A DNA stretch of 64,000 nt, from NCBI RefSeq assembly GCF_003790525.1, contig NZ_CP033635.1. One strand, written 5' to 3'. This DNA comes from Escherichia coli (GTDB lineage: Bacteria > Pseudomonadota > Gammaproteobacteria > Enterobacterales > Enterobacteriaceae). Below the pieces are notes generated by a model. The model was not told where the DNA came from. It saw only the letters and a program-made list of their open reading frames with translations, and did not search any database. This document shows positions 4,014 to 55,972 of this stretch, in pieces (within the stretch, counting starts at the first letter, position 1; each line of letters starts with the position of its first letter). The position numbers were made by a program, and so were the translations under genes.

Positions 4014-5270
4014 ATGGATATTGTCGAACGCTTTATCAATTATACAAAAATTAATACCACTACCTCACGAGAAAACGGCGCAAAAGGGATCATGCCTTCA
4101 TCTCCTGGTCAGATGAAACTTGCGAAATTGTTGGTGAGTGAACTTGAAGCATTGGGTATGGAGGATATTATTCTCAGAGAGAATGCTATCGTAACAGCAA
4201 CACTCCCTGCAAATACTGACGAAACAATCCCCGTCGTTTCCTTTTTTGGACATCTGGACACCAGTGCCGAACAGACAGCCGATACAAAAGCGCAACGATT
4301 ACCTTATAATGGGGGCGATCTCTGTCTGAACCCTGAACTGAATATTTATTTGCGTGAGAGTGAATTCCCGGAGCTCAAAAATTATATTGGCGATGACCTT
4401 ATAGTGACAGATGGTACCAGCCTTCTGGGGGCCGATGATAAAGCGGCGCTGGCGGCCATAATGAACGCACTTCAATTTCTGATTTCTCATCCTGAAATCA
4501 GGCATGGAGAAGTTAAAGTTGGGTTTGTGCCAGATGAAGAGCAGGGGTTACGGGGGGCCAAAGCCTTCGATGTTTCAGAGTTTGGCGCAGATTTTGGCTA
4601 CACTCTGGATTGCTGCGGTATTGGAGAATTTGTTTACGAAAACTGGAATGCGGGTGATGCAGAAATTATCTTTACCGGCCAGTCTGCACACCCTATGTCA
4701 GCGAAAGGCAAGCTTAAGAACTCTCTTTTGATGGCTCACAAATTCATTTCGATGTTGCCAGGAGGAGAAGCGCCTGAATATACAGAAGGACGCGAAGGCT
4801 ATTATTGGGTGAAACAGTTACAGGGAAACAGTGCCAGAACTGTACTAAAACTGGATATACGAGATTTCAGCGAGGAAGGATATCACGCCCGGAAGACATT
4901 TGTACGCCAGCTTGCAGAAAGTGCTTGTGCATTATGGGGAGAAGGAAGCGTGATCTGCCAACTGAGCGATCGGTACGCCAATGTCTTTAACAGTCTGCAG
5001 GGAGAGGGGCATTATCCCATCGACATTGCCCTGCGAGCTTACCAACGATGTGGTATTACTCCGACACCGGTGGCGATGCGTGGAGGATATGATGGCGCTG
5101 TTCTTTCACAAAAAGGATTACCCTGCCCGAACATTTTTACCGGCGCACATAATTTCCATTCTATCTATGAATATCTTCCAGTCCGTTCACTTCGGGCGGC
5201 AAGTGATGTGGTTATTGCCATCATTCAGGAGACATTCAATGGGTTCACCACAGGGAATCGTGAGTCATGA
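4014..5270 (+). CDS. peptidase T-like tripeptidase (M20B family metallopeptidase)
   Basis: 418-aa ORF; blocks FFGHLDTS, TDGTSLLGADDKAA, VGFVPDEE, IFTGQSAHP resemble PepT/M20 family as recalled. Confidence 0.8.
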   Translation: MDIVERFINYTKINTTTSRENGAKGIMPSSPGQMKLAKLLVSELEALGMEDIILRENAIVTATLPANTDETIPVVSFFGHLDTSAEQTADTKAQRLPYNGGDLCLNPELNIYLRESEFPELKNYIGDDLIVTDGTSLLGADDKAALAAIMNALQFLISHPEIRHGEVKVGFVPDEEQGLRGAKAFDVSEFGADFGYTLDCCGIGEFVYENWNAGDAEIIFTGQSAHPMSAKGKLKNSLLMAHKFISMLPGGEAPEYTEGREGYYWVKQLQGNSARTVLKLDIRDFSEEGYHARKTFVRQLAESACALWGEGSVICQLSDRYANVFNSLQGEGHYPIDIALRAYQRCGITPTPVAMRGGYDGAVLSQKGLPCPNIFTGAHNFHSIYEYLPVRSLRAASDVVIAIIQETFNGFTTGNRES

Positions 5271-6628
5271 TTAAAGTTGTTATCGCGCTTCTTGTTATCG
5301 TGATAGTTGCTCGCTTAATCCTGAAAGGATATCGTGCAGAACCCGTGCTTTTTATTGCCGGGCTTGCGCTGATGGTTTGTACCTGGTTTACCGGTTGGGG
5401 CACAGTGTTACCGAAGGGCGTGTCCGGTACAGGAATTAGTTTTCTTGATCCTTTCGAAGTCATGCGCAATTTATTCAGTACCCGTGCGGCTGATCTCGGT
5501 CTGATGATTATGACCCTGATGGGATTTGCGCATTACATGGACCATATCGGTGCGAATGAAGCGGTTGTCCGTGTGGTAACCCGGCCATTACGGACATTAC
5601 GTTCCCCCTATGTTCTGCTTTTTTTCTCTTATCTTTTCGCCAGTCTTCTTCAACTGGCTATCCCCTCAGCTACCGGACTTGCTGTTTTACTGATGGGAAC
5701 CATGTTTCCTATTATGCTCGGACTCGGGCTGTCAGCAGCGTCTGCCGCAGGGGTAATTGCCACCTCTCTTGGTGTGGCGTACACACCGACAGCCATTGAC
5801 GCCATACGAGGCTCTGAAGCGGTAAATATGGATGTGGTGGAGTATGTTGTCTATCATCAGGGGCCTGCTGCTCTGGCGACTGTTCTGATTGTCGGTATCA
5901 GCCACTTTTTCTGGCAGAAACACTGTGATCGTAAAGCTGGAACATTACCTCATGAAATTGGTACGACAACGGTCATAAAAGCAGGCAGTACGCCGGCTTA
6001 TTATGCTCTGCTACCTATGCTACCGATCCTGATGGCCGTTGGCTCATCGGAGATTTTTGTCACCGGAATTAATCTCAATATCATTACGATTGTTCTTATC
6101 TCAATGGCAATTTGCATGCTGATCGAATGGGTCCGTAAATGTGATCTGAAAGCTGTATGTGACGGGTTTACCCATTTCCTGAAAGGAATGGGGACAGCAT
6201 TTACCGGCGTGGTGGGCTTACTGGTGGCCGCAGGTGTGTTTGCTCATGGGATTAAAAGCATTGGCGCGATAGATCAATTAATTTTGATGGCAGAGCACGT
6301 TGGGTTACCCCCTTTTGCGATGGGCATCGTTTTTGCTCTGGTTACACTGGCTGCAGCTGTCATTATGGGATCGGGCAATGCGCCATTTCTGGCTTTTGTT
6401 GAACTGATACCACAAATCGCTGCCAGCATGGGCGTGAATGCCATATCGATGATCCTGCCTATGCAGCAGGCTTCCCATATGGGGCGTGCGATGTCTCCCG
6501 TATCTGGCGTGGTTATAGCGGTTTCCAGTGGAGCAAATATAACTCCCTTCGAAGTGGTAAAACGCACTGCTTTACCCCTGATAGTTGGTTTTGTTTTTCA
6601 CTCTGCGATTATCGGTATTTTTTATTAA
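5267..6628 (+). CDS. DcuC-family (C4-dicarboxylate anaerobic carrier-like) transporter
   Basis: 453-aa membrane ORF; similarity to DcuC as recalled (ARLILKGY.., GNAPF.AFVE.IP, PVSGVV.AV); start ATG overlaps pepT-like stop (ATGA), so translationally coupled. Confidence 0.75.
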
Positions 6629-6639
6629 CTTGTTTTAGA

Positions 6640-8000
6640 TTGTCATCCTCCACGCCCAGAAGGATGTGGATTCCTGCTAATCAGGCTATTGCCGGAATCA
6701 TTTCGGTGGGCTCCTGCTTAAACAAAAGGCCTGACTGCACCATCTCTTTACAGGCAAGTACGGCGTGCCCTGCAGCTAAAATATTACGGGTGCCGTTTAC
6801 ATCGGCGCTCGCTGCATATGTGCGCCGGGCATGGCGCGTAGCGCCGTGACTGGCGCTGTTCTTCAACTGTGGTGGCTGAAGAACGACTAAGAGGTGAAAG
6901 TCCTCCACACACCCGGTGAGGGGAAGTGTTAGCGGAAGGCAAGGGTGTTCATCGCGAGGTGAAATCTGAAGGAAGCCGGATGCAAAATGCTGGCCTGACG
7001 AACAGGAAGCGGTTAAGGCGGCGCAGCAGGGTAAGGTGGCACAAATCACCAAAGCCCGATACTCACACGGAACGCTGTGACGTAAAGCCGACAGGCATAA
7101 GCAGGAAAGTCGCGTGAATTACCCCGGGAGATCTGTCGCCCTGCCAGTGTGCTACCGGTGCCGTGAGGCGCCGGGATGGGGCGGCAGAAGTCAGCCGACG
7201 CCGTAGTAGTGCTGCAAAACCGGCAGCATGAAGGGCCGAACATGATTAACTGTGATTAGGACATCCGAACCCGATGATGATTAATGAAGCACACGCGCAG
7301 GCAACTGCGGCCAGCGGCAGAGGAGACGGACAGTATCCGTCAGGGCTGCATGATGGCGCTGAAATCAGCACGGCGGCGGGTGGGCAAACGAAAGCGGAAG
7401 TGCCGCTGACGATGGAAGCGGTGATAACGAGAGAAAACCTGATGCTGGCTTATCAGCGCGTGGTGGAAAACAAAGGTGTGTCGGAGTTGAAACCGTGGCT
7501 GAAGAAGAACTGGCGCAGCGTATGGCAGGTATTGATTGACGGAAACTACCAGCCGCGGGCAATACGCCGGATGGATATCCCGAAGCCGGATGGCGGCGTG
7601 AGAACCTTAGGCATCCCGACGGTGGTGGACAGGCTTATCCAGCAGGCGATAGCGCAGCAGTTAAGCGCCATCGTGGACACAGCTTCTGCCGCTACGCAGA
7701 CGACTGCAACATCTACGTAAGCAGCCGGAAAGCGGGCGACCATCTGCTGAAGGACATCAGGGCGTTCGTGGAGAGCAAACTGAAACAGAAGGTGAATGAG
7801 AAGAAGAGCGCGGTGGCGCGCCCGTGGGAGCGGAAGTTGTGGGCTGACAGTGACGGACCGTGCTGCTTCACCAAACGCCTTGGACGGCAGGCGGAACTTG
7901 GATCGTTACGTACTTGAAAAGTGGATCAACAAGAGGGTTCAACGAGACTGGGGAGTTATATTTCTTTCTCAAGGTCCGGCATTTATCTCTTCCACATGAA
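6640..8000 (+). mobile_element. group II intron remnant (5' RNA domains plus internally deleted reverse-transcriptase/maturase ORF); boundaries approximate
   Basis: ORF 7274-7720 has the RT domain 0-2 signature (ENLMLAYQRV..IPKPDGGVRTLGIPTVVDRLIQQAIAQQL); a downstream frame has RYADDCNIYV..KLKQKVNEKKSAVARPWERK (RT domain 5-7 and thumb); the intervening RT domains are missing and no domain V/VI was seen. Confidence 0.7.
7274..7720 (+). pseudogene. group II intron reverse transcriptase/maturase, N-terminal fragment (internally deleted, frameshifted)
   Basis: see group II intron remnant; RT motifs split between frames, indicating deletion. Confidence 0.7.
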
Positions 8001-8243
8001 ATCTCGATATAAAGTCAGACACGGATGTCCTACTGAAAGCGGGGGGAAGTATGGTGATAGAGGTCAGCGGGAACCTATCCATAAAAGTCACTCATTACAC
8101 TAAAAAATATGTGCATATTATTTGCGTGCAATTAAATTTTGCAAAATCGAATTAGCATAATTTTTTTTGATAGAAGTCAAATAAACATAATGGAAAAAGT
8201 TTAAATATTTATATTGTATAAACTTCAGACAAAAGGAGGAGTT

Positions 8244-48024: not shown

Positions 48025-49188
48025 GTGAGGTGTATTGTGGGAAAGGAACTGGATGATATCTGCACCAGCTGTCCGTATATCGATACTGTAAAACGGCACA
48101 AACAACAGCTCGGTGCCATAGAGGAATATACACAGTGGTTAAAAAAAGAACCACGGGCATCTTATTTTTTTCTGTTCCAGCTGTATACCCGCATTCACAA
48201 TACATTTTTCTCCCAAAAGCAACAACTCCCGTTCACTCCCGGTGGCACTCACTGCCCGGAACCTGATGTCACCCTTCGGGACTTAACGCTTTCCCCTGGC
48301 TACCACAGTGATTATGCCCCTCAACCCATTCCGGAGATGGACAGTTCTGCTGTTGTTCCCCCAACTAATGAAAACACCTCGCCTCCGGAAGATACTCCCG
48401 ACAACACTCCGGCCGGAGGCAATACCGGACAAGCGGAAAAGACCAGAAACGCAGGACTCACACCCATTCCTGAAAAACGTTCAGGAATGCCCCCGGAACA
48501 TCTGCGGTTTGCCACGGGGTTTCCATCGCAACCGAAGATTGCCGGTCCCAGAGAAAAGCCGATGCGCACCGTGCATCCGGATAAAATCTACCGTGAAATT
48601 ATATGGTTCTGCTCCAGTTACCTGCTGAAATCCGGACCAGAGGCTACGAGGACGATTATCAACTCAGTATTCTCTGAATGGGCCAGCATAAACAATGATT
48701 ACCCCTCCCCCTTTTCGTGGGTGGACAGCAGGGACAGTGAACAGTGTGACTGGTTATGGAACGCCATGCAGATCCGGTGTGTGGGAACCCCGCTGAATCC
48801 CCTTACCCCGGAGCAGAAATACTGGTTTGCCTGCGCCACGTTTGATAACTGGGAGGGCTGGAATGAGCAACAGGTACAGTTTTTACTGGAAAGTAATCCC
48901 AGACGGAACAGAGCGAAGTTTACGCAGGTCTCCTTCCAGGCCCCCAGGATTCAGCATAAAGCGATTCTTCTTGATGAGCTGAAAAGTGCCCGGGAGCAAC
49001 AAAAAAGGCGTGATGAACGTGCTGATGGTTCCGTCCCTCTGAAACTGTCCGGAAAAATCCACAAACAGCTTGAAAGTATTGCCCGAAGTCGTGGTGTCCT
49101 CCCAAAAAAACTGCTGAATGAAATGATTGAGCAGGCGTACCATGATTTGGTGGCAACCAGGCAGAACAGCCAAATCGATTCCAGATAA
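48025..49188 (+). CDS. hypothetical protein with Pro/Thr-rich low-complexity linker (island backbone, unknown function)
   Basis: 387-aa ORF ending 45-84 bp upstream of the YeeP-family GTPase gene; start codon uncertain. Confidence 0.5.
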   Translation: MRCIVGKELDDICTSCPYIDTVKRHKQQLGAIEEYTQWLKKEPRASYFFLFQLYTRIHNTFFSQKQQLPFTPGGTHCPEPDVTLRDLTLSPGYHSDYAPQPIPEMDSSAVVPPTNENTSPPEDTPDNTPAGGNTGQAEKTRNAGLTPIPEKRSGMPPEHLRFATGFPSQPKIAGPREKPMRTVHPDKIYREIIWFCSSYLLKSGPEATRTIINSVFSEWASINNDYPSPFSWVDSRDSEQCDWLWNAMQIRCVGTPLNPLTPEQKYWFACATFDNWEGWNEQQVQFLLESNPRRNRAKFTQVSFQAPRIQHKAILLDELKSAREQQKRRDERADGSVPLKLSGKIHKQLESIARSRGVLPKKLLNEMIEQAYHDLVATRQNSQIDSR

Positions 49189-49271
49189 TTTCAGACAGAT
49201 ATTATTTCCGTGAATCCCCCGCCACCTTTCCGGTGCGCGGGGTTTTGTCTTTTTTCACCGGGAATACATGT

Positions 49272-50144
49272 ATGAATCCGTCTGATGCCATTGAGGCAAT
49301 TGAAAAACCGCTCTCCTCCCTGCCTTACTCACTTTCCCGTCACATCCTGGAACATCTGCGCAAACTCACCAGTCACGAACCCGTGCCTGGCATTATGGGT
49401 AAAAGCGGGGCCGGTAAATCCTCACTCTGTAATGCGCTGTTTCAGGGGGAGATCACCCCGGTCAGTGATGTTCACGCCGGCACCCGGGAAGTGCAGCGCT
49501 TCCGTCTGAATGGCCATGGTCACAGCATGGTTATCACTGACCTGCCCGGGGTGGGCGAGAGCCGGGACAGGGATGCAGAGTATGAAGCCCTGTACCGTGA
49601 CATTCTGCCCGAACTGGACCTGGTACTGTGGCTGATTAAAGCCGATGACCGTGCCCTGTCTGTGGATGAGTATTTCTGGCGACACATCCTGCACCGGGGA
49701 CATCAGCGGGTACTGTTTGTGGTGATGCAGGCCGATAAAACGGAGCCCTGCCATGAATGGGATATGGCCGGTATTCAGCCTTCTCCCGCACAGGCACAGA
49801 ACATTCGCGAAAAAACGGAGGCGGTATTCCGTCTGTTCCGGCCCGTACATCGGGTTGTTGCCGTATCGGCCCGCACCGGCTGGGAACTGGATACGCTGGT
49901 CAGTGCGCTCATGACAGCACTTCCCGACCATGCCGCCAGTCCCCTGATGACCCGCCTGCAGGACGAGCTGCGCACGGAATCTGTCCGCGCTCAGGCCCGT
50001 GAACAGTTTACCGGTGCGGTGGACCGGATATTTGACACGGCGGAGAGCGCCTGTATTGCCTCTGTTGCACGCACGGTTCTGCGTGCCGTCCGTGACTCGG
50101 TGGTCTCTGTTGCCCGCGCGGTATGGAACTGGATTTTCTTCTGA
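49272..50144 (+). CDS. YeeP/YfjP/YkfA-family small GTPase (50S-ribosome-binding GTPase fold)
   Basis: P-loop GIMGKSGAGKSS, DLPG (G3) and Mxxx ADK-like G4; start taken at MNPSDAIEAIEKP. Confidence 0.8.
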   Translation: MNPSDAIEAIEKPLSSLPYSLSRHILEHLRKLTSHEPVPGIMGKSGAGKSSLCNALFQGEITPVSDVHAGTREVQRFRLNGHGHSMVITDLPGVGESRDRDAEYEALYRDILPELDLVLWLIKADDRALSVDEYFWRHILHRGHQRVLFVVMQADKTEPCHEWDMAGIQPSPAQAQNIREKTEAVFRLFRPVHRVVAVSARTGWELDTLVSALMTALPDHAASPLMTRLQDELRTESVRAQAREQFTGAVDRIFDTAESACIASVARTVLRAVRDSVVSVARAVWNWIFF

Positions 50145-50260
50145 ACCCGGTGGTGATGTACCAGGCTGTTGTTACAGATTTTTAACTCCATGAAAACACT
50201 ATGCAAACGCAGCCATACCCGGGTTGTCCCCTTGCGTTGTGTTTCTCAAGTTAATAGAAT

Positions 50261-50305
50261 GCATCGATCGTTACTATCATATCGATCGTTATAAACGATC
50301 GTTTG
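50261..50305. promoter_or_regulatory. cluster of three GATC-containing palindromic repeats (ATCGATCGTTA x2, AAACGATCGTTT) upstream of the dynamin-like operon; candidate Dam/OxyR-type phase-variation switch
   Basis: GATC at 50266, 50284 and 50297 within 35 bp, embedded in direct/palindromic repeats; sits where the agn43 (flu) regulatory region lies in CP4-44. Confidence 0.5.
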
Positions 50306-50361
50306 TAGTAAATGACCTCCTCCGTGGTTGTCATGAAAATGCGTCTTAGGAAGGTTAAATA

Positions 50362-52758
50362 ATGCACGAAAAGAACATCGCCCTGCTTTGTGATGAAGCC
50401 GACCGACTTTTGCAACTGAACATTAATCTGCTCCGGCAAATGGTTGAGGAGCCAGATGTGTTATCTGACAGTAAGAACGAAAACAGACTGCTTTTTGATA
50501 AACAGAAAGCACTGAAAAGAATTGAGGAGCTGGAGGGCGAACAAATCAAAACCGCCCGCAGGGAGATGGTGCTGGCTGTTGTCGGCACGATGAAAGCAGG
50601 CAAATCAACCACCATCAACGCCATTGTGGGGCAGGAAATTCTGCCTAACCGTAACCGCCCCATGACCTCTGTACCGACGCTCATCCGCCACGTTCCCGGA
50701 AAAACTGAGCCGGTTCTCCATCTGGAACATATTCAGCCTGTCCGCAATTTATTAATCACACTGCAGGAAAAACTCGCCACCCCGGCAGGACAGCAGGTCG
50801 CACAGACCCTGCAGCAAACCGGGGATACCCGCGAACTGCTGGATATTCTGACGGATGATGGCTGGCTCAAAAATGAATACCACGGGGAGGAGGAAATCTT
50901 TACCGGACTGGCATCGTTAAACGATCTGGTTCGTCTTGCTGCGGCAATGGGGACTGAATTTCCTTTTGATGAATACGCAGAAGTGCAGAAACTGCCGGTG
51001 ATCGACGTGGAATTCAGCCATCTGGTGGGGATGGATGCATGCCAGGGAACACTCACACTGCTGGATACCCCCGGCCCTAATGAGGCCGGACAACCGCAGA
51101 TGGAAGTGATGATGCGGGATCAACTGCAGAAAGCCTCTGCGGTTCTGGCTGTGATGGATTACACCCAGATGAACTCAAAAGCGGATGAAGACGTCCGTAA
51201 AGAGCTTAATGCCATTGCTGACGTATCAGCCGGCCGCCTGTTTGTACTGGTCAATAAATTTGATGAGAAAGACCGCAATGGCGATGGGGCAGATGCCGTA
51301 CGCCAGAAAGTTCCGGCAATGCTGAACAGCGATGTGCTGCCCGCCTCCCGCGTTTATCCCGGATCCTCACGCCAGGCATACCTGGCTAACCGTGCGCTTC
51401 ATGAGTTACGGAAAAACGGAACCCTTCCTGTTGATGAAGCCTGGGTCGATGATTTTATCAGAGGTGCCTTCGGTTGCATGAAAAAAGAATACGTCTGTAA
51501 AGACAGTGAACTGGCAACTGAAGGGGCGACAGACCTGTGGGAAGGCTCACTTATCGATCAACTGATAACGGAAGTCATACAGAGCTCACATTCCAGAGCT
51601 GCGGCACTGGCGGTTGACTCTGCCGCCGCAAAACTGATGCAGAATGCAGAAAATATCAGTGAATACCTGTTGTTACGCCATCAGGGGCTACAGCAAAGCA
51701 TTCAGTCACTGCAGTCGCATATCACCAGCCTGCTTGCGGATATCCGGGAAATCGCGGACTGTCAGGAGCAGATGACCACTGATGTCAGAATGGCCATGGA
51801 GGAGATCGATACTAAAACCCGGGAATTACTGACGGGGGTCTGCACCTCACTGGAAGAGGAGCTGAATGACTATTTCAGAAGCGGTAAACGCAAAGAACAG
51901 CAAATGCTGGAGGAAGAAGACGCAGAACAACGAAGGTCTCAGTCCGGATTATGGGGGAAAATTTCTCAATGGTCCGGTATCAACAACCAGGGCCGGGAGG
52001 ATTACAGGAAACGAGATTTTGCCCCGGACAGCCCCGAAATAAAATTCAGTGATCGCAGGGAAGCCCTTGAACTGATGACGCAAATCGAATCGACCGTGAC
52101 CAGCCTGCACCGTGAGGCTGAAGCACAGTTCCGGCCTGAGCTGGAGAAAATCGTCAGCGGGATTGAAACAGGTTTTCGTGGCACGGCCCTGTACGCCACA
52201 GAAAACATTGCCGGTCGCATCAATGCCCGCCTGGAGGATGAGGGCTTTACCGTAAAAATCAGTTTTCCGGCAGTCAGCCAGTTACAGACCCGGCTCGCGG
52301 TAAAAATAAATCTGAGTGCGCTTATGGAGGAAAGAACGGAGACCGTCACCCGTCGCCGTCGGCAGAGTGGCGTATGGGGAACCGTTTGTCGATGGTTTGG
52401 CACCAGTGACCTGGGCTGGGAAAACTATGACGAGGATGTGAGTCGCAGCGTGATCAATATCAACAAGGTCAGAGAGGAAGTTATGTCACTGACCCGGGCA
52501 TATTTCGGGGAGCTGCAGGCATCCATTGAGCAGGATATTAACCAGCCCGTCCGCCAGGAAATCGATGCCTTTTTCTGCGCATTCAGGGAGAAAGTTGAAC
52601 AACTGCGTAACACGCTGATTCAGAGCTCTGAAGATCATAAACGCGATCAGCAGGCGCAGGAACGGCTTACCGGGCGACTTCAGGCATTAAATGAAAGGGT
52701 TCCTGAGCTCATTACTGACAGTAAGGCGCTGAGGGAAGAGCTGGAGACAATGCTGTGA
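50362..52758 (+). CDS. dynamin-like GTPase (bacterial dynamin-like protein; CrfC/YjdA paralog)
   Basis: 798 aa; AGGAAGG RBS; P-loop GTMKAGKST (G75-S82), G3 LLDTPGPNEAGQ, G4 VLVNKFDE; N-terminal 330 aa closely parallel K-12 YjdA/CrfC as recalled; long coiled-coil C-terminal half. Confidence 0.85.
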   Translation: MHEKNIALLCDEADRLLQLNINLLRQMVEEPDVLSDSKNENRLLFDKQKALKRIEELEGEQIKTARREMVLAVVGTMKAGKSTTINAIVGQEILPNRNRPMTSVPTLIRHVPGKTEPVLHLEHIQPVRNLLITLQEKLATPAGQQVAQTLQQTGDTRELLDILTDDGWLKNEYHGEEEIFTGLASLNDLVRLAAAMGTEFPFDEYAEVQKLPVIDVEFSHLVGMDACQGTLTLLDTPGPNEAGQPQMEVMMRDQLQKASAVLAVMDYTQMNSKADEDVRKELNAIADVSAGRLFVLVNKFDEKDRNGDGADAVRQKVPAMLNSDVLPASRVYPGSSRQAYLANRALHELRKNGTLPVDEAWVDDFIRGAFGCMKKEYVCKDSELATEGATDLWEGSLIDQLITEVIQSSHSRAAALAVDSAAAKLMQNAENISEYLLLRHQGLQQSIQSLQSHITSLLADIREIADCQEQMTTDVRMAMEEIDTKTRELLTGVCTSLEEELNDYFRSGKRKEQQMLEEEDAEQRRSQSGLWGKISQWSGINNQGREDYRKRDFAPDSPEIKFSDRREALELMTQIESTVTSLHREAEAQFRPELEKIVSGIETGFRGTALYATENIAGRINARLEDEGFTVKISFPAVSQLQTRLAVKINLSALMEERTETVTRRRRQSGVWGTVCRWFGTSDLGWENYDEDVSRSVININKVREEVMSLTRAYFGELQASIEQDINQPVRQEIDAFFCAFREKVEQLRNTLIQSSEDHKRDQQAQERLTGRLQALNERVPELITDSKALREELETML

Positions 52759-53660
52759 CTTCACCATTTATTCAACAAATTGCTGATAACCGGGTATGTC
52801 AGGTACTCACCTGTCTTCCTGAAAAATTTGTGGTTGATTTCGCAAACGGAATCGATGTTGCACAGGAGCATATCCGCACGGCCGGAGAGCGCACGTTCTT
52901 CCGGCGTTTAAAAGAGGGGCTGACCGGCGAAGGCGCTGCACGGCAGAATGCCATCAATGCGTCGCTTGCACAGGGCGTTGAGGCGTCCCTGCGCTGGCTG
53001 ACGGAGATGACAACGTCACTTGCCACCACAAACTACGCGATTACCCGGGTAAACGACAGGGTCAGTTCACTGGTCAGTGATACAGCCAGGCTGGCGCATT
53101 ATTCCGCAGATACGCGGGAGCAGTTACTCACCCTGGCCGATCAGGTTCACCATAAACTGAATCATCTTGAAGAAAAACTCCACCGTGTTGACCAGGTTCA
53201 GCGGGCGCAGTTACATCTTGAGCAGATATTCTCATGGTGGAGCGCCGGGCGATATGCGTCATTTTCCCCTGCCGGACGTTGTTATGTGGCACTTGAAGAG
53301 CTTCGCTGGGGCGCGTTTGGTGATGTGATACGTCAGAGCGAAACAGGCCAGGTTAACCAGCTACTGGATATTCTCAGACATAAAGCATTAACGCAGATGG
53401 CACAGGAGAGTGGCGGTAGTGCAACCGTGCGTCTGAACACTCTGGACTGGCTTGGTGGTCAGGGCCGGGAGCAGGCAGATAACGAGTGGCATGACGCGAT
53501 TAACTGGCTGGGAGACTGGTGCAGTGAAGAGCAGCATCCGGTGATCTGGTCAACCACGCAGGCTGCAGAACACTTACCGGTTCGCATGCCTCGCCTCTGC
53601 TCTGCAGAACGCCTCTCTGAAAGTATGGTCGATGAAATATTTCAGAAGGGGGCTGCATGA
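52755..53660 (+). CDS. YjcZ-like protein (partner of dynamin-like GTPase), unknown function
   Basis: 301 aa; GTG start overlapping upstream stop (GTGA); same gene order as yjdA-yjcZ in K-12. Confidence 0.6.
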   Translation: MTSPFIQQIADNRVCQVLTCLPEKFVVDFANGIDVAQEHIRTAGERTFFRRLKEGLTGEGAARQNAINASLAQGVEASLRWLTEMTTSLATTNYAITRVNDRVSSLVSDTARLAHYSADTREQLLTLADQVHHKLNHLEEKLHRVDQVQRAQLHLEQIFSWWSAGRYASFSPAGRCYVALEELRWGAFGDVIRQSETGQVNQLLDILRHKALTQMAQESGGSATVRLNTLDWLGGQGREQADNEWHDAINWLGDWCSEEQHPVIWSTTQAAEHLPVRMPRLCSAERLSESMVDEIFQKGAA

Positions 53661-54727
53661 GTACAGAAATGAAAACGGGGCTGGTGCTGTCCGGTGGCGG
53701 GGCGGTGGGCGCTTATCAGGCGGGAGTGGTTAAGGCACTGGCAGAGTGTGGTACACAGATCAGCATGGTTTCAGGGGCCAGCATTGGCGCATTCAATGGT
53801 GCCATTATCGCGGCCTCTACCGATCTGTCAGAAGCTGCCGTACGCCTGGAGGCGCTCTGGGATCATCTGGGGAATAATCAGGTGCTGTCGGTAAACAGAT
53901 TGGTTTACTTTTCATTGCTGAAAAAATTGTTCCAGGCAATGAACCTCTGCCAGATCCCCGGACGTGCAGGAGCACTGCTTACGACGCTTCTTCGCCATAT
54001 ATCGACAATCAACGGGTTTGACAATCTGATGGCTCAGCCGTTGTTGTCAGATGAGCCCCTGACAGCGCTGATGGATCATTATCTTGATACTGATGCTCTG
54101 GCAGACGGGCTACCGCTGTATGTGTCGCTGTACCCCACAGAAGGGGGCATGCAGGATATTATTGACTGCATTCGTGCTGAACTGGGTGTCGGAACCACGA
54201 AAAACGCCGTTTTTCAGCATATCCAGAGCCTGCCCCGCGGACAGCAGAAAGAGGCTCTGCTTGCGTCAGCCGCGCTGCCCCTGCTGTTCCGTCCCCGTGA
54301 GGTTCAGGGGACAATGTTCGGTGATGGTGGTATGGGAGGATGGCGAAATATGCAGGGAAATACCCCTGTGACGCCTCTGGTCGATGCCGGATGCAATATG
54401 GTGATTGTGACGCATCTGAGTGACGGTTCTTTATGGGATCGCCAGGCTTTTCCGGACACCACAATCCTTGAGATCCGTCCCCGGAAAAGGCTGAAATATG
54501 CAGGTGATGGTGGCAACAGCGGCGGTCTGCTCAGTTTTACATCGGCACATACCGACGCCTGGCGTCAGCAGGGCTATGAAGACACGATGCTGGCGATGGA
54601 GCATATCCGGAAACCGCTGGCAGCACGTCAGGCACTGACCCGGTCAGAGGCGGTATTGCAGAAAAGCCTGGATATAACGGAAGAGGCAGATTTGGCACTG
54701 AGAAACGCGATGGCCCGGATTAAATAA
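53657..54727 (+). CDS. patatin-like phospholipase
   Basis: 356 aa; oxyanion/glycine-rich loop GLVLSGGGAVGAYQAG, nucleophile elbow GASIG (Ser42), catalytic Asp motif FGDGGM; ATG overlaps upstream stop (ATGA). Confidence 0.85.
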   Translation: MSTEMKTGLVLSGGGAVGAYQAGVVKALAECGTQISMVSGASIGAFNGAIIAASTDLSEAAVRLEALWDHLGNNQVLSVNRLVYFSLLKKLFQAMNLCQIPGRAGALLTTLLRHISTINGFDNLMAQPLLSDEPLTALMDHYLDTDALADGLPLYVSLYPTEGGMQDIIDCIRAELGVGTTKNAVFQHIQSLPRGQQKEALLASAALPLLFRPREVQGTMFGDGGMGGWRNMQGNTPVTPLVDAGCNMVIVTHLSDGSLWDRQAFPDTTILEIRPRKRLKYAGDGGNSGGLLSFTSAHTDAWRQQGYEDTMLAMEHIRKPLAARQALTRSEAVLQKSLDITEEADLALRNAMARIK

Positions 54728-54859
54728 AGACGCCCCAAAGAAACGCCACCGCCTGTGGTGGTGTTTTTCCTGTCTGGTGTTATTGAAAATATTTTCAGAT
54801 ATATATTACCTGAGAGAAAGTTTTACCCCTCACCTGTCAATTCACTCACTGGAAATTTA

Positions 54860-55546
54860 ATTATGAAATTACCTGTAAAGTTATTAATGAGCCTTATATC
54901 TCTGGTCAGCGTTATTGCACGTGCCGGGGAATATAAAAATTACAGCCGGGATGAAATAAAATACTGGCGATATACATCATACAAGGGGGGGAAACTTCCG
55001 GAAGGTTTCACTGATGAGAAATTTTCCAGCGCCATTTACAACGGAAGAATATTTACAATGAAACGTTTACATACCCTTATGTTATTTCTGGCGGTTCTGT
55101 TCACGGGCTTTAACTTTAACGCAGAAGCGGCTACCGTAAAACAAGCTCTTAGTTGTAACCCGGAAGCCTGGGCTGAACAACCTGGAGCGTGTCCATCAAC
55201 GTACGAGTTGTACGAAGGTGACGCTACCTACAAAGCCGCTATCGACAAAGCATTAAAACCGGTCGGACTGAGCGGCATGTTCGGTAAAGGCGGCTATATG
55301 GATGGCCCTGGTGGAGGTATCACGCCAGTAAACATTAACGGTACAGTCTGGTTCCAGGGCGACGGTTGCAAAGCCAATACCTGCGGCTGGGACTTTATCG
55401 TAACACTCTATAACCCAAAAACCCATGAAGTTGTTGGCTACCGTTACTTTGGTTTAGATGACCCGGCCTACCTGGTTTGGTTCGGTGAAATTGGCGTGCA
55501 TGAATTCGCGTATCTGGTGAAAAACTACGTAGCTGCGGTTAACTAA
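54860..55546 (+). CDS. secreted/periplasmic protein of unknown function (possibly lysozyme-inhibitor-like); start uncertain (alternative ATG at 55060)
   Basis: in-frame ORF with two signal-peptide-like segments (MKLPVKLLMSLISLVSVIARA and MKRLHTLMLFLAVLFTGFNFNAEA); Cys-containing C-terminal domain. Confidence 0.45.
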   Translation: MMKLPVKLLMSLISLVSVIARAGEYKNYSRDEIKYWRYTSYKGGKLPEGFTDEKFSSAIYNGRIFTMKRLHTLMLFLAVLFTGFNFNAEAATVKQALSCNPEAWAEQPGACPSTYELYEGDATYKAAIDKALKPVGLSGMFGKGGYMDGPGGGITPVNINGTVWFQGDGCKANTCGWDFIVTLYNPKTHEVVGYRYFGLDDPAYLVWFGEIGVHEFAYLVKNYVAAVN

Positions 55547-55561
55547 TTTAAGGAGTCTATC

Positions 55562-55972
55562 ATGAAAACTTTTATCAAAACTTTACTCGTTGCTGTAACT
55601 ATTCTGTTCTCTGTCTTCGCTACTGCGAAACAAGTAAAACTGCCAAATAACATCAAATACGTTAATACTACAGAAGCGTTTTCCTGTACCGAAATTGACG
55701 GTATGAATTGCCAGACAAAGAATCAGTTCAACTATAAAGATAACAGCTATGTTTTCGTGCTTGAGCGTGGTGGTGCCTGGTGCTACGACTACACTGTCTC
55801 GGTAGTTAACCTGAAAACCGGGAAAGCACAAATGATTGAATACGGGGACAATCAACTGTGCTCAGGTAGCAACAAACCGTTCTTCGAAATCAAAAATGGC
55901 GTACCGACGGTAGGAGTCATCGACACATCCGGAAAACCTGTCGTTGTAGCCCAGGACAAACTTAAAATCTAA
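55562..55972 (+). CDS. small secreted protein of unknown function (signal peptide, 6 Cys)
   Basis: AAGGAG RBS; MKTFIKTLLVAVTILFSVFATA signal peptide; 136 aa. Confidence 0.6.
   Translation: MKTFIKTLLVAVTILFSVFATAKQVKLPNNIKYVNTTEAFSCTEIDGMNCQTKNQFNYKDNSYVFVLERGGAWCYDYTVSVVNLKTGKAQMIEYGDNQLCSGSNKPFFEIKNGVPTVGVIDTSGKPVVVAQDKLKI

Follow-up and report, generated by a model that had tools for sequence, protein, structure and literature searches.

The 64,000-nucleotide stretch of Escherichia coli contig NZ_CP033635.1 analysed here (the window) carries at positions 50,362–54,727 an operon of three genes, g1, g2 and g3, which code for a dynamin-like GTPase, a YjcZ-family protein and a patatin-like phospholipase and are collectively termed the triad. 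The closest characterised relative of the GTPase is RdcA of the E. coli core genome, a soluble dynamin-like protein which binds RdcB and, depending on its nucleotide state, activates the diguanylate cyclase DgcE by docking on the MASE1 domain of this enzyme (PMC6510439). RdcA is active in its GTP-free form; the K82A variant is functional, and T103D loses both function and binding. The rdcAB genes are under flagellar FlhDC/FliA control (PMC6510439). In both operons, the gene of a CrfC-family GTPase overlaps by 4 nt with the YjcZ-family gene that comes next. However, rdcAB is a two-gene operon of the core genome and the FlhDC/FliA regulon, and its client DgcE is encoded elsewhere, whereas the triad adds a strictly linked patatin gene, is carried as mobile cargo behind an agn43-type promoter, and presumably has the lipase rather than DgcE as its client.

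The Eleos system resembles the triad in its dynamin-family GTPases, its location in defence islands and a P-loop needed for function, but consists of two Leo-type dynamins encoded in succession and includes neither a YjcZ protein nor a lipase (bioRxiv 10.1101/2022.05.11.491447). Two dynamins are present in triad loci only in variants from Acinetobacter, and LeoA is a structural relative of the g1 product. Assignment of the operon to Eleos was rejected: it encodes one CrfC-type dynamin, the PADLOC model for LeoBC matched this protein with E=8.6e-5 over residues 29–89 only, with no passing stretch, and the LeoA model gave no match. The cyclic oligonucleotide-based antiphage signalling system (CBASS) with its effector CapV shares with the triad a cytoplasmic patatin that has an intact Ser-Asp dyad and, as the presumed effector of the triad, would likewise be inactive until triggered, as well as the occurrence of WYL (CapW-type) regulators. 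It is activated by a cyclic nucleotide, whereas the activator in the triad would be a protein GTPase complex. CBASS was rejected as well, since neither a CD-NTase nor a cyclase is encoded in the triad or by its neighbours and the matches of g3 to the CBASS lipase models of PADLOC and NCBIfam are weak, with 19.5 bits as compared to a cut-off of 200 bits.

A precedent for a GTPase-gated patatin is VipD, which is allosterically activated by the GTP-bound small GTPase Rab5. VipD with Rab5 and ExoU with ubiquitin are patatins switched on by a protein cofactor, and g3 shares their catalytic motifs; however, both are secreted and activated in the host, whereas the GTPase of the triad is large and encoded in the same operon, and the lipase is predicted to act inside the producer cell. 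Mycobacterial IniA has the bacterial dynamin-like fold to which g1 was matched by Foldseek, while Bacillus subtilis DynA was likened to g1 from the literature and not by structural match. DynA limits phage spread by delaying lysis, which provides protection at the population level (PMC8844932). In contrast to the triad, DynA and IniA are housekeeping single proteins or pairs that lack a YjcZ partner and a lipase and are not mobile cargo.

This dynamin/RdcB/phospholipase operon has already been described in E. coli MP1 and termed a “putative defense system” in a study that reported no tests of this function (BMC Genomics 2026; PMC12922286). The operon, whose products are about 30% identical to core RdcAB and whose neighbours are EcoKI and Druantia, belonged to the most strongly up-regulated cluster of Kapi1 lysogens, a cluster of five co-upregulated genes, in all media, and its expression did not track the lytic–lysogenic decision; the authors found no literature linking phospholipases to bacterial dynamins (PMC12922286). 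A paper on an island of Shiga toxin-producing E. coli (STEC) O118 mentions the triad genes in passing. An earlier note on the window, made from the sequence alone, did not recognise the combination as a named system, and PADLOC v2 likewise returned no system match for the triad, but only sub-threshold P-loop and lipase matches. The novelty claimed there holds insofar as the system is unnamed; as a candidate for defence it had already been put forward in PMC12922286.

Architecture and distribution of the triad

The triad comprises the following genes:

50362–52758, plus strand: g1, start codon ATG, 798 amino acids (aa), CrfC/RdcA-family bacterial dynamin-like GTPase
52755–53660, plus strand: g2, start codon GTG, 301 aa, YjcZ/RdcB-family partner protein
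53657–54727, plus strand: g3, start codon ATG, 356 aa, patatin-like phospholipase

The g1/g2 junction is a 4-nt GTGA start/stop overlap (sequence CTGTGACT), and the g2/g3 junction is a 4-nt ATGA start/stop overlap (sequence GCATGAGT); a purine-rich, Shine-Dalgarno-like run is located 5' of each of the two junction starts. Translational coupling of the three genes, as claimed in the earlier note, agrees with the list of open reading frames (ORFs), which contains the frames and overlaps at exactly these coordinates.

Searches by megablast recovered at least 80% of the 4.6-kb region from 2444 of 5426 complete E. coli genomes (45%), with up to five copies per genome, and patatin homologues of 45–65% identity are present in many Gammaproteobacteria. 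One genome per species of the Genome Taxonomy Database (GTDB) was scanned with a 14-sequence alignment of the patatin as query, and the ORFs of the resulting 80 loci were searched iteratively with g1, g2 and g3. The scan yielded 22 complete triads with the same gene order and strand, originating from Gamma- and Betaproteobacteria, Cyanobacteria, Bacillota and Bacteroidia. Proteobacterial carriers are Escherichia, Pantoea, Budvicia, Serratia, Pseudomonas, Acinetobacter, Moraxella, Methylococcales and Aquaspirillum; the other carriers are Tolypothrix, Scytonema, Anabaena, Cytobacillus, Paenibacillus and one metagenome-assembled genome (MAG) of the Bacteroidia. Given its frequency among the E. 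coli genomes and its recurrence across phyla, the arrangement is far beyond chance.

Linkage of the three genes is tight. In the patatin clade, all 27 loci show linkage of g3 to g2, and only two or three of them lack the linkage to g1; g2 adjoins g3 in every family locus, and the loci found with g2 as seed (P. aeruginosa, Methylomonas and Allochromatium) contained the full triad in all three cases. Patatins with less than about 33% identity are solo genes in unrelated contexts. An unlinked patatin gene in other genomes had been named in the earlier note as an observation that would speak against a defence-like operon, and these linkage counts point in the opposite direction. In most loci the genes overlap or are separated by a few bases, distances of –4 or –1 nt being typical. 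Across 253 locus pairs, pairwise identities of the gene products were correlated with r=0.91 for g1 and g2, r=0.85 for g1 and g3, and r=0.89 for g2 and g3. Comparison with the triad copy of E. albertii gave dN/dS ratios of 0.25, 0.10 and 0.34 for g1, g2 and g3, respectively. The triad genes are co-inherited, co-evolving and under purifying selection. Comparison of neighbouring genes did not reveal a conserved fourth gene across the triad loci, and a protein search with a g2 profile retrieved only triad-type relatives among the best 120 matches. The triad is a self-contained, horizontally mobile three-gene module, which is carried as cargo of islands and plasmids beside defence genes.

Some loci deviate from the standard arrangement. 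In Acinetobacter triads, an additional CrfC-like GTPase of 490–530 aa is encoded just upstream of g1 (L013, 2930–4525; L036, 3137–4612), and on one metagenomic contig two GTPases are fused to a protein of 1197 aa (P0243; L093, 389–3982), followed by a YjcZ gene. A locus of Streptomyces sp. (L035, 6681–12895) shows the rearranged order g2-like gene, patatin gene and two genes of dynamin-family GTPases. In Actinomadura macra (L033, 3912–9050), an Hsp70-like ORF precedes the g2-like and patatin genes, and a GTPase was not detected at this locus. Acinetobacter sp. KCTC 92772 has an ORF of 413 aa in the place of g1, between a WYL regulator gene and g2-g3 (L015, 5828–7069); it did not match any NCBIfam model and may code for a different sensor partner or indicate a decayed locus. 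The patatins of Synergistaceae MAGs (L022–L029), which share 37–40% identity with g3, were treated as lying outside the triad family because they occur without g1 and g2 and beside a D-Ala-D-Ala carboxypeptidase. At L029, the patatin gene follows a D-Ala-D-Ala carboxypeptidase-like gene and an ORF of 1648 aa. With these MAGs, the outer limit of the triad-linked patatins is reached.

Gene products and their relation to RdcA and RdcB

The g1 product matches the Pfam family Dynamin_N (E=1.6e-17) and contains the P-loop G75-x4-G80-K81-S82, the G2 residue T102, the G3 motif D235-T-P-G238 and the G4 motif N298-K-F-D301. Motifs G1–G4 are kept in 23 of 23 aligned family members. Together with 33% identity to K-12 RdcA over the full length, these data bear out the description of g1 in the earlier note as a dynamin-like GTPase with intact G1, G3 and G4 motifs that parallels CrfC/YjdA. 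An assignment as CrfC/RdcA ortholog was rejected: with 556 bits on the NCBIfam equivalog model of CrfC (NF007368), g1 remains under the cut-off of 1146 bits and represents a distinct branch. The family of g1 comprises 447 representative clusters at E ≤1e-30, with the RdcA branch counted in.

The AlphaFold2 (AF2) model of g1 (pLDDT 81.6, pTM 0.71) predicts a G domain (residues ~68–350), a long helical stalk and a small β-sheet tip, and the predicted tip bears a basic, Trp-rich helix (residues 671–679) which is conserved in Proteobacteria and Cyanobacteria. When the model was compared with solved structures by Foldseek, matches were obtained with the bacterial dynamin-like protein BDLP (2.6e-14), SynDLP (2e-13), IniA (6e-12), mitofusins (1e-9) and LeoA (2e-6), and further with the Campylobacter dynamin-like protein pair and with dynamin. 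By its G motifs and the predicted stalk and tip, g1 is classified as a bacterial dynamin-like protein of the BDLP/mitofusin class. The term “membrane-remodelling GTPase”, which had been used for g1 in the earlier note, describes one option; the precedent of RdcA suggests a regulatory switch that docks on an enzyme rather than a membrane-cutting machine. The maximum Kyte-Doolittle value of g1 in a 19-residue window is 1.16, which is below transmembrane grade, and none of the three triad proteins has a hydrophobic segment of transmembrane grade according to this crude hydropathy check, which does not reach secretion signals.

The g2 product matches the Pfam family YjcZ (E=4.7e-70) and shares 30% identity with K-12 RdcB over the full length; its RefSeq name is “diguanylate cyclase regulator RdcB family”. 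Its position after the GTPase gene thus corresponds, as had been proposed, to that of yjcZ after yjdA in K-12. The AF2 model (pLDDT 78.8) shows a helix of 105 residues (59–163) and a compact C-terminal domain; an informative match among solved structures was not obtained. By analogy to RdcB, g2 is presumed to be an adaptor bound to g1.

The g3 product matches the Pfam family Patatin (PF01734; E=8e-24). Its oxyanion loop (G13-G-G), nucleophile elbow (G40-A-S42-I-G44) and D223-G-G motif align with those of PlpD, VipD and ExoU, the PDB match 4kyi reflecting homology to VipD, and the Ser42/Asp223 dyad is intact. All the motifs noted previously in this protein are therefore present, and they were found to be invariant in family alignments of 14 and 23 sequences. 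The protein additionally bears a conserved C-terminal extension of about 100 aa. RssA was rejected as an identity of g3, the score on the RssA model being 32 bits with a cut-off of 272 bits. Presumably, g3 is the effector of the triad. Some E. coli lineages, O157:H7 (FRIK920) and O104:H4 (C227-11) among them, commonly carry patatin alleles truncated to 200–260 aa, which suggests frequent inactivation of the effector. Some of the truncated E. coli alleles are mis-annotated as “ferredoxin reductase” (protein clusters P0017, P0019 and P0072–P0077).

The relation of the triad to the core-genome regulators was addressed by distance trees with a remote outgroup. In rooted neighbour-joining analyses, K-12 RdcA fell within the triad clade in 198 of 200 bootstraps, and RdcB, which sits on a long branch, was nested in 190 of 200. 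RdcA appeared as sister to the triad GTPases of Budvicia and Serratia in 187 of 200 bootstraps, and the split uniting RdcA with these two triad GTPases is independent of the root. No patatin remnant was detected at the K-12 rdcAB locus (L002, rdcA/rdcB at 5136–8239). On the simplest reading of these trees, core rdcAB would go back to a triad from which the lipase was lost and which took on a new client. Since both proteins are nested in the triad clade, the logic of RdcA/RdcB control was probably inherited from the triad.

Putative upstream switch region and genomic neighbourhood

The triad is flanked by the following features:

49233–50144, plus strand: YeeP-family small GTPase gene, part of the island backbone and outside the triad, marking the flu slot of K-12 CP4-44
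50251–50304, plus strand: agn43-type promoter/operator with candidate OxyR site; –10 element TAATAGAAT (50252–50260), GATC at 50266, 50284 and 50297
50348–50354, plus strand: Shine-Dalgarno-like AGGAAGG, 7 nt ahead of the g1 ATG, read directly from the sequence
54744–54773, plus strand: intrinsic-terminator-like hairpin, GC-rich and followed by a T run, 17 nt past the g3 stop

The spacer between the yeeP-like gene and g1 has a length of 217 bp. Its three GATC (Dam) sites lie inside three 11-nt repeats of the form A(T/A)CGATCGTT(A/T), which are built around CGATCG and overlap the promoter-like site. The –10 element is common to this spacer and the yeeP–flu spacer of K-12, and the GATC spacing is 18/13 here as compared to 19/13 in K-12 (L092, 2803–2860). 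The annotated isrC/flu transcript of K-12 starts at the first of its GATC sites. A core of 52 nt is 73–75% identical to the regions upstream of flu and of O157 cah, whereas the flanks share 22–50% identity; the cah sequence used for comparison is that of O157:H7 TR01 (L101). The –10 element and the three GATC blocks are invariant in seven upstream sequences, namely those of four E. coli triads, the E. albertii triad and two autotransporters. The composite –10/GATC pattern occurs once in the window and had no matches in 100 shuffles, and 1983 genomes have the operon together with this spacer.

In agn43, three GATC sites are contained in a single OxyR repressor site, and Dam methylation blocks OxyR binding, which results in the ON state; expression is locked OFF in dam mutants and locked ON in oxyR mutants (PMC2909390, PMC3764049). 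Because its upstream region is homologous to this switch, the triad of E. coli is predicted to be phase-variable under the control of Dam and OxyR, the latter acting via the candidate site. The two loci share the slot after yeeP, the –10 element and three GATC sites at nearly equal spacing. They differ in the downstream gene, which codes for a dynamin-like GTPase here and for an autotransporter in agn43, and in the leader, which is long in flu and includes isrC, as compared to about 60 nt in the triad. The literature searched did not contain a publication linking agn43 with a dynamin or with the triad operon, and a methylome paper on sequence type ST131 gives no site-level data. An indirect hint of switching is that the operon gives the strongest lysogen-specific signal of E. 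coli MP1 whatever the medium. Phase variation is not considered in PMC12922286; if the lysogen and non-lysogen stocks differed clonally in their ON/OFF state, exactly the expression pattern reported there would result.

The hairpin downstream of g3 is the probable 3' end of the triad transcription unit; given the five-gene co-upregulated cluster in PMC12922286, it may be leaky. Two small genes on the same strand, 54863–55546 and 55562–55972, are located beyond the hairpin. Neither has a PADLOC match, the former also lacks a Pfam or NCBIfam match, and both are absent from the E. albertii triad copy; they may correspond to the two extra genes of the co-upregulated cluster of E. coli MP1. Upstream of the yeeP-like gene, an ORF of 387 aa (48025–49188) is annotated in RefSeq as hypothetical protein and did not match NCBIfam or PADLOC models.

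The gene at 49233–50144 is named “GTPase family protein” in RefSeq, and its 3' end aligns near-identically with the yeeP pseudogene of K-12. The query is matched with 100% identity by E. coli SMS-3-5, whose island adjoins tmaR/yeeX, yeeA and sbmC, i.e., the CP4-44 position, at which K-12 carries flu where SMS-3-5 has the triad. The placement of the operon in the flu/agn43 slot after YeeP of a CP4-type island, as given in the earlier note, is confirmed. The triad occupies different slots of CP4-like islands; in those of E. coli it follows YeeP. In Pectobacterium it is situated at the distal end of a CP4-like island with RadC, CbeA/CbtA and DUF4942, and in P. fluorescens within an integrase/YeeP/RadC/DUF932 island; a YeeP-like GTPase accompanies the triad in both of these islands as well. 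A 62%-identical variant of the whole triad is carried by about 25 plasmids of Klebsiella, Enterobacter and E. coli. On an IncFIA plasmid of Enterobacter hormaechei, it directly follows an IS1 copy (L091, 6773–10991), and g1 is annotated as “dGTPase” in some plasmid records. Neither a tblastn search of 50,697 phage records with g2 nor a scan of IMG/VR viral contigs revealed a triad relative.

Several triads are located near defence genes. In V. parahaemolyticus, a complete SIR2+HerA system lies at a distance of 6 kb (PADLOC E values of 3e-274 and 2.8e-186). McrBC, a WYL protein and a PD-(D/E)xK protein are encoded near the triad on a metagenome contig, and the neighbours in P. fluorescens include BrxR, SIR2 and an ADP-ribosylglycohydrolase. 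The P. aeruginosa triad is accompanied by two WYL regulators, which lie next to recBCD. Of 27 loci with g2 and g3, 7 have a same-strand gene of a regulator with wHTH-WYL-WCX domains (Pfam) upstream, as compared to 1 of 53 control loci from the same scan. Triad-adjacent WYL regulators were found in Pseudomonas, Acinetobacter, Aquaspirillum and one metagenome contig, while gene listing and profile scans did not reveal any in the 64-kb window. BrxR/CapW regulators repress downstream defence systems (PMC9122601, PMC9122588). The WYL genes of the seven loci are L005, 2498–3391; L010, 373–1272; L012, 1736–2635; L013, 1999–2901; L015, 4852–5754; L020, 3439–4497; and L036, 2182–3096. Further WYL genes by triads are L083, 3752–4624; L089, 13964–14983; and L094, 11825–12829.

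Possible function of the triad

The triad very probably acts as one functional GTPase–adaptor–lipase unit. The best-supported proposal is that this unit serves defence against phages or other invaders by abortive infection, which is, in our estimation, about an even bet. By analogy to RdcA/RdcB (PMC6510439), g1 and g2 would constitute a nucleotide-gated switch with the co-encoded lipase as client. As long as the switch is at rest and loaded with GTP, the lipase would be inactive or kept off the membrane. A trigger would then shift the nucleotide or oligomer state of g1; candidates are a shrinking GTP pool and a perturbation of the membrane by phage, which g1 would sense with its basic, Trp-rich tip. 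The complex would bring active lipase to the inner membrane or release it there, and hydrolysis of phospholipids would lead to membrane collapse and stop phage production. Gated expression would be expected because a dangerous lipase must not be made constitutively. In E. coli, the gate could be the agn43-type Dam/OxyR ON/OFF switch, so that only a subpopulation would be armed, while in Pseudomonas, Acinetobacter and Aquaspirillum an upstream WYL repressor could take this part.

A number of observations weigh against a role in defence, which is deduced from genomic context and hence from guilt by association. The published up-regulation in lysogens fits defence and a mere phase state equally well. 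Neither PADLOC v2 nor DefensePredictor nor two domain-centric E. coli screens include the triad, though it is common in E. coli, and the literature searched contained no phage-protection experiment on any of its members. To our knowledge, selections of E. coli DNA fragment libraries against T4, lambda and T7 did not report it either. The triad appears dispensable, given how often the patatin gene is truncated in certain E. coli lineages. The enrichment of WYL regulators (Fisher p=0.0017) was calculated with phylogenetic non-independence ignored and with controls from different taxa. Moreover, the Methylomonas triad, located among FecIR/TonB genes, and that of the Enterobacter plasmid, located between IS1 and transporter genes, have contexts that are not defence-like. 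The direction of control likewise allows either of two options, as g1/g2 could activate the lipase or restrain it.

A more specific proposal is that of a new, phase-variable immune class in which the dynamin GTPase and its adaptor sense the membrane or the GTP pool and license a lipase, with RdcA/RdcB as a domesticated remnant; in this full form it is tentative, and we consider it doubtful rather than probable. If the triad does serve defence, the immune repertoire would gain a widespread system, which spans at least four phyla and is carried by about 45% of the complete genomes of E. coli, and its sensor, a dynamin GTPase with an adaptor controlling an enzyme, would be without a counterpart among the named systems. 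The YjcZ family would gain a function, and the origin of the RdcA/RdcB biofilm regulators would be explained. The triad would also be a candidate abortive-infection-type system under Dam/OxyR phase variation, i.e., bet-hedged immunity; no other such system under this type of control was found in the literature searched. The phase state would moreover provide an alternative explanation of the transcriptome result of PMC12922286. Even if the triad does not serve defence, a conserved, GTPase-gated intracellular phospholipase would represent a new regulatory principle for bacterial patatins.

Alternatively, the triad could maintain or repair membranes: the dynamin would seal or remodel the inner membrane and the lipase trim the lipids of lesions, conferring tolerance instead of suicide. 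Cells would benefit when exposed to pore-formers, colicins, antibiotics or phage lysis, in the last case by delayed lysis and protection at the population level. This is the kind of role favoured by the authors of PMC12922286, and DynA protects populations by delaying lysis (PMC8844932). The closest folds to that predicted for g1 are those of the membrane-active proteins BDLP, SynDLP, IniA and mitofusins, and the conserved tip helix resembles a membrane-interaction element. However, RdcA as the closest characterised relative is a soluble enzyme regulator and not a membrane remodeller. A repair system would be expected to have its place in the core genome, whereas the triad occurs patchily and in multiple copies on islands and plasmids and would be controlled by WYL regulators or a phase switch, and bare patatins whose dyad is intact are more typically toxic effectors. 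We therefore consider repair unlikely, albeit with a real chance.

Tight translational coupling is a feature of many toxin-antitoxin operons, and the triad may occur in several copies within one genome; its islands also contain CbtA/CbeA toxin-antitoxin pairs, and on plasmids it is found beside ccdAB. The lipase might thus be a toxin that is restrained by g1/g2 and stabilises the island or plasmid by selfish addiction or competition, with no dedicated anti-phage role. Such an explanation is improbable: a GTPase-plus-adaptor “antitoxin” of 1,100 aa with conserved catalytic motifs would be over-elaborate for stabilisation, the triad is present in chromosomal, non-mobile contexts too, and cells in the OFF phase would lose toxin and antitoxin harmlessly.

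The full-length homology of g1 and g2 to RdcA and RdcB, the RefSeq name of g2, and a switch common to the operon and an aggregation/biofilm adhesin would be compatible with a signalling paralogue, in which g1/g2 regulate a diguanylate cyclase or a MASE1-type sensor to affect biofilm formation or motility, the lipase being an accessory output. However, RdcA/RdcB are a late offshoot nested in the enterobacterial triads, and a DgcE-specific role cannot be ancestral, given the triads of cyanobacteria, Bacillota and Bacteroidia. The strictly linked, co-evolving partner is the lipase, and g1 scores well under the CrfC/RdcA equivalog cut-off; a signalling function is hence very improbable. Least probable of all is a role in virulence or vesiculation, in which the dynamin promotes vesicle or toxin release like LeoABC of enterotoxigenic E. 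coli (ETEC) and the patatin attacks host membranes like ExoU or VipD: the location in a pathogenicity-type island (PAI-CFT073-aspV) in extraintestinal E. coli lineages, the g3 motifs common to ExoU and VipD, and the structural relation of g1 to LeoA are outweighed by the equal occurrence of triads in free-living cyanobacteria, methanotrophs, soil Paenibacillus and environmental Pseudomonas, by a similarity to the Leo models that is limited to the P-loop, and by the lack of transmembrane-grade segments in the hydropathy check described above.

Additional observations were made at individual triad loci. An AAA ATPase of about 700 aa with an IetA-like domain is encoded together with a WYL protein by the triad of P. 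fluorescens (L083, 717–2807) and on an unrelated metagenome contig (L089, 11708–13858), and the two genes may represent another uncharacterised defence pair. On an Allochromatium-like contig (L097, 6551–13065), ileS and lspA, housekeeping genes which are usually adjacent, are separated by the triad, a gene of a Uma2-family endonuclease and a Fic gene, and their interval here looks like a small hotspot for variable genes. In a study on E. coli ATCC 25922 treated with olaquindox, “mutation” counts of 75 for rssA, 122 for crfC and 10 for yeeP were reported (PMC7696260). These counts are probably due to mis-mapping of reads between paralogous island copies rather than to selection by olaquindox.

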